Assembly: GCA_051599415.1 (NCBI GenBank) | Contig: AP039699.1 | Span: forward strand, 310,001-374,000 | Direction of reading: 5' to 3' | Length of the DNA: 64,000 nucleotides | Source of the DNA: Savitreella phatthalungensis | Lineage: Eukaryota | Part shown: piece after piece, positions 37,601 to 57,051 of the stretch | Layout: each line of letters starts with the position of its first letter | Position numbering within the stretch: the first letter of the stretch is position 1 | The notes under the pieces: model-generated | Databases searched by the model: none | Seen by the model: the letters and a program-made list of their open reading frames with translations, nothing else | Told to the model about the DNA's origin: nothing | Position numbers and translations under genes: made by a program

Positions 37601-38872
37601 GAGATCTCTAGTGTTAAGAGGATAATTGACTGCTGATCTGGGTCTATCAGGGTTGAGTCATCTAGTGTTCTGAGGATGTGTTAGTTGTGCATCTGACCTG
37701 TGAAATAAGGGGCGAGCTACCTGACGACTGATCCTCGTGGTTTCGATACAGATGATCTTGTTGATCCAGCTACTACATGCAGCTGCGAGTGTTGGCGAGT
37801 GTGCATACATAAATTGATTCCCACATGTGTACACGTGTACGTACTTGATAAATGTGCATCTATACTTGATCATCATGCATGCGCGTGCTGCGGATAAATC
37901 CCGCGGTCAGCTGGTCTACGGGCGATTGGCTTGACCCGGTTGGAGGTTAGGATTTTGAACATTGCCGTCAAATGCATGTACGGTCTCTGACTTGAATATT
38001 GACGACTTGAATACTCAGTGACCACTCACCCACTCACTCACTCACCCAATGTGAACAGTTGGGTATTTATCCCAATTTGGAATTGACAATCGTGCATTAT
38101 AAGACGAACATTTGACAGAATGTGGAGAATTGGACAATCTAGAAACCGGAATTTACAGGTAATTTACGTGCGTATATGTTTGCATAGATAAATTTAATTT
38201 GAGATGTAATGAAGTTCAGATTAAATTTATATGTGTTTCACTTTCAGAAGATATGAATTTAGATCAAATCAATTCGACGCACTAAAATTGATCTTGATTA
38301 TAGAAGATCAAGAATAGAGCAACTTTGAAGCCTCAGAGCATGAATTGCAAATCTAAATTAATTTAGTCTATACAGGATGTATGGTGTTGATTAGACTTGA
38401 AATATAAATTTAGTCTGGTCGTTGAAGTGTGAATGCTGCACTGCATGGTCCTAGGCTGAATCTCATGAACGACTCCAGTATGCATAGGCTAAAAAGCTAC
38501 CAACTACAGTACAGGCCACAGGGTACGGGGAATGAAAATAGGCAATAGCCTACAACAATCATCCACGCAAAATAAGCAAGCAAGCAAGCAGGTCAGTCAG
38601 TCAGTCAGTCATTCAGTCAGCGAGCAAGCACACTTCTCTCCAGTCCATCTCATACAGTCGCCTGTGCGCCAGAGTCAGTGGAGTGACCAGCAATTATTCA
38701 CGGTCCTGACGAGGCGCGTCAGTCAGTCATTTCGAAACATCAGTGCCGCACGCGGCCCCTTTCAGGCAAAACATCGGAGCGGTGGCAGCACTCACAGGCG
38801 ATCAGATGATTCTTGCCATGCATATCGCCCTATAGCATTCTGTCCTTTCCCAAAGACCCATAATACCCGCTC

Positions 38873-52024: not shown

Positions 52025-55000
52025 ATGTCAGATTCGCTCGCATCCAAGATGCAGCTTGATCCACTGGAAAAGGACGGAGGTCGCGAGATTGACGAGTCTC
52101 TTTACTCACGTCAGCTGTACGTCCTCGGCCACGATGCTATGCGGCGCATGGCAAACAGTAATATCCTCATCGTCGGTCTCAAAGGACTTGGATGTGAAAT
52201 CGCAAAGAACGTTGCGCTCGCAGGCGTCAAGTCTCTTACACTGTATGACCCAAATCCGGTCATGATCCAGGACCTATCCACACAGTTCTTCCTTCACCCG
52301 GAAGACGTCGGCAAGCCGAGGGCAGCAGTCTCTGCTCCACGGCTAAGCGAACTCAACAGCTACGTTCCAATCCGAGTGCTTGATGGCGACCTTACACCGG
52401 ACAACCTGCGAGACTTCCAGGTCGTCGTGCTGACAGAGACTGCGCTAAGCAAACAGCTGGAGATCAACGACTTCACTCATAACAACGGCATCTTCTTCAT
52501 CTCTACAGACGTTCGCGGCCTATTCGGCAACATCTTCTGCGACTTTGGACCCGATTTTGCAGTCGTCGACCCGACCGGCGAAGAACCCTTGTCCGGTATT
52601 GTTGCCAGCATCACAAGTGATGGCCTCGTCACTGCTCTCGACGAGAGTCGACATGGTCTCGAGTCTGGAGACTTTGTGACGTTTGCAGAAGTCGAGGGAC
52701 TTGATCTGGGCACTGAACCGTACAAGATCGATGTCAAGGGGCCTTACACCTTCAGTATCGGGCCCCTCACTGGCAAGGGCCAATACACGCGTGGTGGCAT
52801 CTTCACTCAAGCCAAAATGCCAAAGATCATCAATTTTGCCTCGCTTCGACAGCAGCTCGACGCACCCGAGATGCTCATTTCGGACTTTGCCAAGTTCGAC
52901 AGACCTCTTCAGCTCCATATTGGCTTCCAGGCGCTTCACAAGTTCGCCGAGGCGCACGAGGGTCTTCTGCCACGCGCACGGCATGAAGCCGATGCAGCGG
53001 ACATCTGGCGCATTGCACAGGAGCTTGCTGGAGCCCGGACTGACAAGCCGGAGCTGGACGAGAAGCTCATCAAGGAGCTTTCGTACCAGGCTCGTGGTGA
53101 CATTTCTCCGATGGTGGCTGTCTTTGGCGGCATCGTTGCACAAGAAGTGCTCAAAGCCGTGTCAGGCAAATTCCACCCAATCGTACAATACCTTTACTTC
53201 GACTCACTCGAGTCCCTTCCACAGTCTGTCACGCTCTCGGAACAGGAGTGCGCGCCCACAGGCTCGCGTTACGATGGACAGATTGCTGTGGTCGGTAAGA
53301 GCTTCCACGAGCGCATCGCTAATACGAAAGAGTTCCTAGTGGGGTCTGGTGCCATCGGATGCGAAATGCTCAAGAATTGGGCCATGATGGGTCTTGGCAG
53401 TGGCCCACAAGGCCAGATCCACGTGACAGATATGGACACGATTGAGAAGAGCAACCTGAACAGACAATTCCTCTTCCGCTCGCCCGATGTCGGGAAGCTG
53501 AAGAGCGAGGTTGCAGCAACTGCTGTCGCCAACATGAACCCTGATCTTCGTGGCAAGATAACAGCATATCGGGAGCGAGTCGGCTTTGAGACGGAGAATA
53601 TCTTTGGCGATGACTTCTTCGCTGGACTAGACTCTGTCACAAACGCACTCGATAACGTTGACGCTCGTACGTATGTCGATCGCCGTTGCGTCTTCTTCAA
53701 GAAGTCGCTACTCGAATCCGGCACACTTGGAACGAAGGGTAACACGCAAGTTGTATACCCGAATCTGACGGAGTCCTACTCATCCAGTCAGGATCCGCCG
53801 GAGAAGTCTTTCCCGATGTGCACTATCAAAAACTTCCCGAACCAGATCGAGCATACGATCGCGTGGGCGAGAAGCGAGTTCGAGGCATACTTCTCCGAAC
53901 CGGCGAACCACGTCAACCTCTACTTGTCACAGCCAAACTTCCTCGAAGCGACGCTGAAACAGAGTGGCGACCAGCGCGCGATTCTTGAGACGATCAAATC
54001 TTTCCTTGTCACGCACAAGCCGTTGACGTTCGAGGAATGTATCGCGTGGGCGCGATTCGAATTCGAGAAGACCTACAATCACAATATCCGCCAGCTGCTG
54101 TATCGTTTCCCGAAGGATTCCGTCACCTCGACAGGCACACCGTTCTGGTCCGGTCCAAAGCGTGCCCCGACGCCTCTCGCATTCGACGTCAACGACCCGA
54201 TCCACTTTGCGTATGTCGTCGCCGGTGCCAATCTGCATGCGTTCAACTATGGTCTGAAGGGGGAGGCTTCCGCGGAGGTATATCGGAAGGTCTTGAGCAC
54301 GATCGAGATTCCTGAGTGGCAACCTTCTGAGAATGTGCATTTCAAGGTGAATGACAACGATCCGGAGCCTGAGGCTTCAGGGGCAGGGGACGATGCAGAT
54401 GTCTTGCAATCTCTTGCAAACGATCTACCTCCGCCGAGCGCTGTCGCAGGTTTCCGCCTTCAGCCTGTGGAATTCGAGAAGGACGACGACACGAACCACC
54501 ACATCGACTTCATCACGGCGGCATCAAACCTGCGAGCACTCAACTACGGCATCGCCACCGCCGATCGCCACAGGACCAAGTTCATCGCAGGCAAGATCAT
54601 CCCGGCTATCGCGACCACCACCGCTGCAACCACAGGTTTCATCTGCCTCGAGCTCCTCAAGATCATCGACGGCAAGAACAAGTTGGAAGACTACAAGAAC
54701 GGCTTCATCAACCTAGCCCTGCCGTTCTTCGGTTTCTCTGAACCGATTCAGTCGCCGAAGCTCAAGTACAATGGTCGTGAGGTTGACAAGATTTGGGATC
54801 GATTTGACGTGAGTGCTGGAATGACGTTGCGCGGGTTGCTGGATCAGTTCAAAGATGAGCATGGGTTGGAGATCACGATGCTGTCGTCAGGCACATCCCT
54901 CCTGTACGCCAGCTTCTTCCCGGCAAAAAAGCTGCAGGAGAGGTATGCGCTCGATCTCGTTGCACTAGTCGAAACCGTCTCAAAGAAACCGGTACCATCA

Positions 55001-55087
55001 CACGCCAAAAACTTCATCCTCGAAATCTGCTGCGACGATCAAGAAGGTGAGGACGTCGAAGTACCTTTCATCACAGCACATCTGTAG
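52025..55087 (+). CDS. UBA1: Ubiquitin-activating enzyme E1
   Basis: [39 protein letters not shown], catalytic [29 protein letters not shown]. Confidence 0.98.
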
Positions 55088-55218: not shown

Positions 55219-56488
55219 TCAGGAGACGCGACCGGAGTCGTGCATGACGACGTCGGTGGAGGCTACGGCTGTGTCTCCGTTGTTGGCGCCACCGTTGGCA
55301 TTGCCGGCTTGTGGGTGTGAGGATTCTGCGGCGGCGCGCTCTTTCTCCTGGATCCCTTGCTGCCAGAGGAACAGTCGTACGAGACCTCGAAGCTTGGCCT
55401 CACGAACGATCCCCTGCGACTCAAGCAGTGCCTCGTTCACCCGATCAGCAACCAGGTGCCGAGTATCTGTGCTCAGGAGCGCACGCGCAGACGCGTCAAG
55501 GACGTCGTGCGGGAAACATAAGAGTGACATTGTCTGCTCGAGGTCGGTCAAGCAAGCAGGCGATGTCTGTGCTCGCGGAGCCAAGTGCGATGTGGCAAAG
55601 TCGAGAAGCGTCGAGAGCGACCAAGGCGATGGTGCTGCGAGGTGTGCGCGAATCAGCTCGATCAGGTGTAAGCGCAGTAGCATGAAGTGTAGCGTCGGGT
55701 CCGTGTCAAGGAGCTATGGGTCAGTCATATGATTCGGGGTGACGTGTCCGTGATCGCTCGATGGACGTCAAGCCACAGTCATTCTGGAACACTCAGCTTG
55801 AAGACTGAAGTTGTGATATGCCTCATCATCCGGCGCGAGCCGGCAGAGTGGTGCATGAACAATGCTCATCAACGTGTTCCTGTGAAATGGTGGCTTGGGC
55901 TTGCGAGTGATTGATTTTGTCTGTTGCGACTTACCTCTGGATCGAGCTCATTGACTAGGGTGATTGCACGGGTGATGTCTCCACGAATGATGGCGGTTCG
56001 AATTTGGACCCGTTCTGAGATGGATTCCGTGGAGACCTTTGGCGTGATGTTTGCCTCCTGTGCGAATTTGGCTGCAGCAGTTTCGTAGCCTTCGATGACG
56101 AGAAAACTGAGAACGAGGTTGTTCAGGTCACTAGGAGGAGTGTCAGTCTAAAAGTCCTTGCCACTTTAGATTTCAACGACGACGACGCTCAAGCAGATCT
56201 TCAGCTCTGTGCCTTCTCCGGTGCTCAGGTCAGTCGATAATGATCATTTACTCTTCCACAAGCGTAATTCTCGGAGAGATTCCCAATCATGAGTAATCAG
56301 TCCTGAGCTGGGGAGGAGAGCTGGAAGAAGATATATGCTGGATACGTTGCCGCCAACGGGACGACATTTCGTGATAGATGGAAAGTGGGAATAACGTACG
56401 CTTTCGAGTAGGGTGTCTCAATGTGCTCGTGAGCGGTCTGGACGATTGGTTGTGATTGATGCACGGTCTGCGCCGCTGCCGCACTCAT
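55219..56488 (-). CDS. GID8: GID/CTLH complex subunit Gid8 (LisH-CTLH-CRA); exons 56400-56488, 55935-56130, 55219-55713
   Basis: Introns 56131-56399 (GTACGT..CTGAC..TAG) and 55714-55934 (GTAAGT..CTGAC..TAG) splice in frame: SKADLNNLVLSFLVIEGYETAAAKFAQE..ERVQIRTAIIRGDI..NELDPE|LLDTDPTLHFMLLRLHLIELIR..LEQTMSLLCF..VADRVNEALL. Confidence 0.92.
55786..55880 (-). ncRNA. Intronic box C/D snoRNA, snR40/U32-like (18S G1271 equivalent), with a second LSU guide
   Basis: Minus strand: stem GGAACAC, C box TTGATGA, guide CATGCACCAC, D' CTGC, hairpin CCGGC/GCCGG, C' ATGATGA, guide ACTTCAGTCTTCAA, D CTGA, stem GTGTTCC. Confidence 0.85.
56223..56308 (-). ncRNA. Intronic box C/D snoRNA, U79/SNORD79-like
   Basis: Minus strand: stem GCTCAGG, C-like CTGATTA, guide TGGGAATCTC, D' CCGA, C' ATGATCA, D CTGA, stem CCTGAGC. 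The guide is complementary to LSU GAGAUUCCCA. Confidence 0.75.
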
Positions 56489-57051
56489 GGCTGGGGCAAG
56501 GAGAGCAGCAGGCAGAACAGACAACCAACCAGTTTGACTGGTCGATTGACTGACTGATTGACTCACGTTCAAATCAGATCTGCTGATGTGAGCGTTTGAG
56601 CGTACAGATGGTCTTGAGAGTCTGCGTAGAAGCGTCGCAATGGATGGTCAGATTGGAAACAGTAAGTAGGTCTGACTCAATTGACCTGAATACTGTGCTG
56701 CAGCAGTTTGAAATTAGCCCAGGATGCAGCTCCCAGATGCAGGGTTTGTACGCACACGCTTAAATCCTGTGGCATTCAGTACACGATATATCATGCTTAT
56801 TATTTGTGTGTGTACGTGTATGCAGGCACGGCAATCTGGTGTAAAAGCCTGCTGAACTCAAATTAGACCTTGAGCGCATATACAGTATATGCATTTAAAC
56901 TCAATTGAAAATTTAAGTGGAATTCGGAAATTTCTTTGAAAACAAATTGGATATCAAATTGATTTTGCAGCTTGAATACAGTCCTCGATCGCCTTCTAAA
57001 GTGCTTTCATAGCAGTACTGTGTCTGTGATTTGGAACTGGTATTAGAACTA

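Follow-up and report, generated by a model that had tools for sequence, protein, structure and literature searches.

The text of a Neurospora crassa survey describes release by splicing, debranching and trimming for most of that fungus's small nucleolar RNAs (snoRNAs) of the box C/D class (PMC2780460). According to a comparison of 44 genomes, the host genes of such RNAs share broad expression, not function, and intronic positions drift over deep time (PMC3511168); among fungi, a study of introns singles out those of RPL7 and NOG2 (PMC8476143). Two families of guide RNA concern us here. N. crassa CD14, an intronic homologue of U79, is assigned, through a D′ guide that matches 10/0, to 26S Am2288 (PMC2780460). 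Yeast snR40 is described as using a single D′ guide for both Gm1271 and Gm562, the C fifth from box D′ being essential (PMC4344503); AtsnoR21, human U32 and yeast snR40 have one common G site in the small ribosomal subunit (SSU) (PMC3511168), and The fungal snoRNAome reports the snR40 family in 90 fungal snoRNAs, as 'CD_43' (PMC5824354). We analysed a stretch of 64,000 nucleotides (nt) from Savitreella phatthalungensis, a member of the Taphrinomycotina (GenBank assembly GCA_051599415.1, contig AP039699.1, positions 310,001 to 374,000 of the forward strand; this whole stretch is called the window, and coordinates count from its first letter). Its GID8 gene has two introns, and each contains one box C/D cassette, the U79-like RNA A in intron 1 and the snR40-like RNA B in intron 2. 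We consider it likely that the gene is a GID8 orthologue with one intron-encoded C/D snoRNA per intron, that both RNAs are released by splicing and guide Am formation in the large subunit (LSU) and Gm formation in the SSU, and that the association is inherited.

The GID8 gene and its intronic cassettes

The gene is read from the minus strand in three exons, from an ATG at 56488 to a stop codon at 55221-55219. Exon 1 (56488-56400, 89 nt) ends in phase 2; Pfam places a LisH motif in exon 2 (56130-55935) and the CTLH/CRA domain in exon 3 (55713-55222, or 55219-55713 with the stop codon). Intron 1 (56131-56399) begins GTACGT, ends TAG and has a branch-like ACTGAC at 56147-56140; intron 2 (55714-55934) begins GTAAGT, ends TAG and has a branch-like ACTGAC at 55725-55718. 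Their sizes, given as 269 and 221 nt in a preliminary description of the window, proved exact on this strand, with GT...AG borders.

Both introns contain one cassette on the sense strand. RNA A (56223-56308, minus strand, 86 nt) lies inside intron 1 and is closed by a perfect terminal stem of 7 base pairs (bp), GCUCAGG/CCUGAGC (56308-56302 with 56229-56223). Its C box, CUGAUUA (56300-56294), lies two nt inside the stem, its D′ guide, UUGGGAAUCUCU (56286-56275), runs into a D′ box CCGA (56274-56271), its C′ region is degenerate, and its D box, CUGA (56233-56230), adjoins the 3′ stem arm. RNA B (55786-55880, minus strand, 95 nt), inside intron 2, has a perfect 7-bp stem, GGAACAC/GUGUUCC (55880-55874 with 55792-55786), a C box UUGAUGA (55872-55866), a D′ guide UUCAUGCACCACU (55859-55847) followed by D′ CUGC (55846-55843), an internal hairpin (55843-55830), a C′ box AUGAUGA (55829-55823), a D guide ACUUCAGUCUUCAAG (55811-55797) and a D box CUGA (55796-55793). 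From the 5′ splice site to the RNA there are 91 nt for A and 54 nt for B, and from the end of the RNA to the 3′ splice site 92 and 72 nt, respectively. This is the layout of intron-encoded snoRNAs, with one RNA per intron, on the sense strand and tens of nt upstream of the branch site, much as the preliminary description had it (one sense-strand cassette per intron, a perfect 7-bp stem, about 70-90 nt before the 3′ splice site). Its C/D reading was also right about the architecture of both cassettes, with the correction that the C box of RNA A, CUGAUUA, which stands beside a CUGA D box and a perfect stem, is not the canonical RUGAUGA. RNA B has the C box, the D box CUGA and the stem of a box C/D RNA, though the first position of its C box is U, not R.

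Such cassettes are rare in the window. A scan of both strands of the 64 kb for UGAU[G/U]A and CUGA, 46-120 nt apart and enclosed by the two arms of a perfect 7-bp stem, found exactly two matches, cassettes A and B, both intronic and on the sense strand; the chance expectation is 0.015 per window (mean of 200 second-order Markov simulations), and no simulation produced two or more. The exact guide cores of A and B do not occur elsewhere in the window.

Both RNAs align end to end with known families, below the Rfam gathering thresholds: RNA A with RF00152 (SNORD79) at 18.1 bits (E 0.97, 121 nt searched), and RNA B with RF00300 (snoZ221/snoR21b) at 19.4 bits (E 0.044, 126 nt searched). RNA A and the SNORD79 consensus have UGGGAAUCUCUC in common; RNA B and the snoZ221/snoR21b consensus have UCAUGCACCACUCUG, 15 consecutive identical guide nt. 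The Rfam snR40 and U32 models gave no match among those listed for the RNA B cassette. The fifth nucleotides of the D′ guides, U in A and C in B, predict a methylated A and a methylated G, respectively, and agree with the Am and Gm reported in the survey and in the snR40 work (PMC2780460, PMC4344503). Both guides are the same as in families with known targets, and their pairing with rRNA is predicted on that likeness. The fifth nucleotide upstream of box D of RNA B is U; the predicted target of this second guide is thus an A, and not the uridine (25S Um898) that the D-side guide of yeast snR40 targets.

The host assignment depends on the protein. The spliced product has 259 amino acids (aa), equal in length to a Savitreella phatthalungensis protein at NCBI (P0001), which is 100% identical to an exon-3 query across the entire query; in an alignment of P0001 with the Protomyces orthologue both exon junctions are ungapped. 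The closest entry of the Protein Data Bank is human GID8 (7nsc_H, E 2.9e-35), and yeast Gid8 is matched at E 6e-7; RanBP10 (E 1.9e-6) and RanBP9 (E 1e-4) are much weaker than human GID8. As in GID8/TWA1, LisH, CTLH and CRA are the only domains and the length falls within about 230-270 aa; the protein is nearer GID8 than RanBP9/10 or the RING-bearing subunits, and certain database relatives carry the name 'glucose-induced degradation protein 8'. By these comparisons, the assignment of the gene as the Savitreella GID8 orthologue stands. Database proteins P0002-P0005 and P0007, as well as many matches of 162-175 aa, begin MLLRL..., inside exon 3; these entries look like the output of prokaryotic-type gene calling on contigs of fungi, truncated at the long intron 2.

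Two further candidates in the window were set aside. A third C/D-like pattern (UGAUGA...CUGA; 54521-54454, minus strand) has only a 5-bp stem, is antisense to a 1020-aa open reading frame (52025-55087) and was treated as chance. Upstream of the GID8 ATG by 40-75 nt (56530-56565, minus strand) there are closely spaced or overlapping CAGTCA/GAGTCA repeats, similar to the Homol-D box that fission yeast has in its snoRNA and ribosomal-protein promoters; we rejected this likeness as evidence, as the repeats do not have the AGTCAC core described as invariant (PMC4138321). A three-repeat CAGTCA pattern matched in the window only at 38594-38619 on the plus strand.

Conservation in GID8 genes of other fungi

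Protein alignment of the window Gid8 and eight database relatives retrieved GID8-encoding stretches from metagenome contigs, and the loci analysed are the best 80 of 147 confirmed stretches. Aligned sets of distinct sequences, 47 for A and 45 for B, gave the covariance models R1 and R2, respectively, built from relatives only, with the window sequences left out. The RNAalifold consensus had four pairs for R1, inside the guide, and none for R2; the models are essentially sequence profiles. On the whole window, the best match of R1 was cassette A (56321-56222, 26.8 bits, E 0.0065) and the sole match of R2 was cassette B (55863-55791, 32.6 bits, E 3.2e-9), each in the intron expected of a family of GID8-intron RNAs.

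Among the 80 loci, R1 matched 62 and R2 matched 68, once each and always on the gene strand, and B is present in each of the 62 that have A. RNA A is thus present in 62 of 65 assessable loci and RNA B in 68 of the 70 in which intron 2 is present and covered. The RNAs are found in the homologous introns at these frequencies, and the view of GID8 as a two-snoRNA host, advanced in the preliminary description, is borne out by gene structure and by homologous-intron conservation across the 80 loci. The 12 loci without B comprise nine that are intron-less in the matched range (L001-L005, L007, L011, L015, L031), L059, whose contig ends 28 nt before exon 3, and L006 and L012, whose introns are short and RNA-less. 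The 18 without A comprise the same nine, six on contigs that begin too late (L013, L027, L048, L050, L059, L067), and L006, L012 and L023, in which intron 1 has just 33-39 nt (counted on the printed sequence). L023 belongs to the same unplaced lineage as L006 and L012 and has a weak, diverged B in intron 2 (19.2 bits). Seven B matches lie outside the training set (L023, L032, L034, L045, L048, L057, L077).

The introns themselves correspond. In 33 of the 62 loci with A, a strict pattern found the conserved end of exon 1 (...VDEVKPSK + 2 nt + GT) upstream of the RNA, at the same phase-2 site as in the window, and in those 33 an AG then precedes exon 2, (T)DINF...; the other 29 failed the strict pattern or were cut off, and are not negatives. 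Exon 3 starts with (Q)ILDxxP in relatives versus LLDTDP in the window. Measured from where the exon-2 match begins, the guide core of A lies 90-151 nt upstream and that of B 241-283 nt downstream. Across the 47 relatives, no column of RNA A varies in the guide block TGGGAATCTCTC, in part of C′ or at the GA in box D, and the C box is nearly invariant; the block held in common with SNORD79 is invariant in 47/47. RNA B (45 relatives) varies little or not at all in its two guides (D′ and D), in C′ and at the box residues GATTA (box C) and TGA (box D), the D′ guide being divergent in the group L061-L068. A hairpin between D′ and C′ of RNA B is found in 39 of the 44 sequences examined, the window included, with differing sequences. 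Outside the conserved blocks the sequence is variable, and this includes the rest of the intron.

One pair of contigs bears on splicing. Contig L003 is intron-less; its identity to the genomic L034 is 96.8% in exon 1 and 99.5% in each of exons 2 and 3, and it is without exactly positions 373-556 (184 nt) and 756-930 (175 nt) of L034, each of which is bordered by GT...AG. These missing segments contain the R1 match (400-499) and the R2 match (786-856). The two contigs apparently come from one organism, and L003 resembles a spliced transcript, though it may instead be an intron-less gene copy. L034 has lost the box-D guide of its snR40-like RNA.

Taxa were named by protein identity to a few dozen named references. 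For six loci with both RNAs, compared over 104-194 aa, a known genus is near: Pseudogymnoascus (L047, 97% identity), Elsinoe (L069, 93%), Penicillium (L025, 90%), Thermoascus (L038, 88%) and Mytilinidion (L037 and L039, 88%). Lookup of Pseudogymnoascus, Thermoascus, Mytilinidion and Elsinoe gave Leotiomycetes, Eurotiomycetes and Dothideomycetes; Penicillium is a Eurotiomycete. Many of the remaining loci are unplaced, at 40-78% identity to any reference. The motif LLRLQLIEL was seen in 73/73 loci where it could be found, as in named Pezizomycotina proteins, whereas Taphrinomycotina proteins have LLRLHLIEL. Introns and RNAs are both absent from three loci whose nearest proteins are from Kickxellomycotina. 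Since Savitreella lies across the basal ascomycete split from these relatives, the simplest history puts both RNAs in GID8 of the ascomycete ancestor, and the association probably dates to that ancestor, being at least as old as the common ancestor of Taphrinomycotina and Pezizomycotina.

Closer to the window, three public DNA runs contain short contigs (164-239 nt, about 95-97% identical) at 55739-55965, 56207-56361 and 56338-56573, which indicates that close relatives of Savitreella are present in other samples. Contig ends aside, their differences fall outside both RNAs, and they show no joints. A fourth DNA run gave a 59-nt piece of a 61-kb contig, at less than 90% identity, on exon 2.

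Proposed release and guiding, and competing explanations

The architecture, the strand, the presence of a single RNA in each intron and its spacing from the 3′ splice site fit release by splicing, debranching and trimming. Both RNAs would be transcribed within the GID8 pre-mRNA, core snoRNP proteins would assemble on the C/D kink-turn beside the 7-bp terminal stem, and, after splicing and debranching, exonucleases would trim the intron down to the protected particle. The D′ guide of RNA A would then direct 2′-O-methylation of the LSU rRNA adenosine at the N. crassa CD14/human U79 site, and that of RNA B methylation of the SSU rRNA guanosine served by snR40 and U32, which corresponds to yeast G1271, and probably of G562 too; the second guide of RNA B, upstream of box D, is equally conserved. 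Most simply, the association would have been kept because the RNAs need these introns for their expression, and not for any link between Gid8 and the ribosome.

Several observations weigh against this account. Checked against Rfam, both introns were negative at gathering thresholds (0 matches in the whole 64-kb window) and positive only as the end-to-end alignments given above, the 18.1 bits of RNA A lying below the RF00152 gathering score of 47 and the 19.4 bits of RNA B below the RF00300 score of 44. The R1 match to A is modest, its E of 0.0065 comparing with 0.039 for a spurious second match (56888-56983, plus strand) in AT-rich intergenic sequence, which is without C or D box and is probably a composition artefact. 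Most matches in the loci are training sequences or their duplicates, so the counts show presence and are not independent validation. Nor is the association universal: L006, L012 and L023 have an intron 1 without A, and L006 and L012 are also without B, with both intron positions kept. Finally, the RNA A boxes, UGAUUA and CUGA, leave U facing C at a position where the canonical boxes have a G-C pair, and its D-side guide differs from the one conserved in relatives. It is mainly the U opposite C that leaves some doubt about the activity of RNA A, and one can suppose that only RNA B works in Savitreella, with RNA A impaired or decaying because damage to the C box blocks snoRNP assembly. GAUG stands at the matching C-box positions in 47/47 distinct A relatives (mostly UGAUG, a few GGAUG), and, together with the modest 26.8 bits and the altered second guide, this speaks for such a loss. 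Decay, however, should spare neither the 12-nt D′ guide, which matches the family's invariant block exactly, nor the perfect 7-bp stem, and the RNA B of L079 has the same UGAUUA and CUGA pair in an otherwise intact RNA; we regard the loss of RNA A as unlikely. The boxes of RNA B vary in a related manner. In C/D kink-turns the fifth residue of the C hexamer pairs with the first residue of box D. Window RNA B has UGAUGA with CUGA, and the 45 distinct relatives have UGAUUA with AUGA (39), GGAUUA with AUGA (4), UGAUUA with CUGA (L079) or an ambiguous pair (L080). If the pairing applies, a compensatory change of G-C to U-A would separate the two clades of RNA B.

The remaining alternatives concern where the RNAs come from and why they stay. 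That the cassettes are chance look-alikes of box C/D RNAs would agree with their scores under the gathering thresholds; two cassettes against 0.015 expected, and guides invariant in dozens of relatives at the same intron positions, contradict this, and we give it practically no credence. The RNAs could also be made from intronic promoters of their own, independently of GID8 transcription and splicing: some N. crassa snoRNA genes are described with putative promoters (PMC2780460), and 91 nt (A) and 54 nt (B) of intron precede the RNAs. Such an origin is very unlikely: each intron has a single RNA, on the sense strand without exception, in 62 (A) and 68 (B) loci, intron sequence is not conserved outside the RNAs, and the 3′ splice sites follow the RNAs by 92 nt (A) and 72 nt (B), the layout described for intron-processed snoRNAs (PMC2780460). 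A different proposal accepts release by splicing and makes the pairing itself selected, in that carbon-responsive GID8 transcription would set two rRNA methylations, or snoRNP assembly would tune GID8 splicing. Across subphyla, both RNAs have stayed in one and the same pair of introns in a gene that is not ribosomal, and in relatives the coding region that was matched shows extra length sufficient for a single intron only, which would fit a selected arrangement. The same retention is expected if the RNAs simply have no promoters of their own, certain relatives keep the introns without the RNAs, and what hosts have in common is described as broad expression, not shared function (PMC3511168); we therefore find selected coupling improbable. 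Drift of snoRNA positions over deep time makes the stability in GID8 noteworthy, but it is not evidence of coupling. Of the coupling between a carbon-metabolism ligase and rRNA methylation proposed in the preliminary description, co-transcription survives, from the layout alone, whereas nothing supports functional coupling, and the finding alone shows no link between carbon metabolism and ribosome modification. On the most far-reaching reading, the U79-like and snR40-like RNAs would have been in GID8 since before the Taphrinomycotina/Pezizomycotina split, among the oldest stable non-ribosomal host associations; the bolder extension, that nutrient-responsive GID8 output sets the levels of two methylations, is a long shot.

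Comparison with known guide RNAs and hosts

RNA A resembles the U79 family (human SNORD79, RF00152; Arabidopsis U79; N. crassa CD14) in its C/D architecture and in a D′ guide core identical to the Rfam consensus. It differs in its C box, UGAUUA, in its D′ box, CCGA, and in scoring 18.1 bits against 47. Human SNORD79 sits in the non-coding GAS5, and the host of the RNA A family is accordingly not shared with animals. Like RNA A, CD14 is described as intron-encoded, with its D′ guide used and an LSU adenosine as target, which for RNA A is predicted (PMC2780460).

RNA B has the 15 guide nt identical to the RF00300 consensus in common with the snR40 family (yeast snR40, human U32A/SNORD32A, Arabidopsis snoR21). 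Yeast snR40 is not known to be intronic, nor yeast GID8 to have an intron. The C fifth from D′ in RNA B is the residue described as essential in yeast snR40 (PMC4344503). The table of the N. crassa survey gives no snR40 homologue (PMC2780460), which the unusual boxes of RNA B in Pezizomycotina, (A)UGAUUA and AUGA, may explain. The RNA also offers a natural example of what would be a compensatory change in the C/D kink-turn.

Full-text literature searches, judged by titles and abstracts, found no publication on GID8-hosted snoRNAs, and main-text passages of the N. crassa, fission-yeast, fungal snoRNAome and fungal intron studies do not name GID8 as a host, though their supplementary tables may list it. 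The pairing of GID8 with these RNAs appears, from the sequences compared, to be old and conserved rather than exotic. Two guide RNAs missed at standard Rfam thresholds can now be annotated in Savitreella and, by position, in many ascomycete GID8 genes, and they provide a possible reason for an ordinary gene to keep exactly two introns across lineages. The closest parallels are the fungal introns of RPL7 (snR39/59) and NOG2 (snR191), which, like those of GID8, are described as widely kept in position with a guide RNA per intron, the snoRNA being the likely reason for intron survival (PMC8476143). The hosts RPL7 and NOG2 act in ribosome biogenesis, whereas GID8 is a ubiquitin ligase scaffold with two such introns in one gene. 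A host outside ribosome biogenesis would thus join RPL7 and NOG2 on the short list of deeply conserved snoRNA-bearing introns of fungi.

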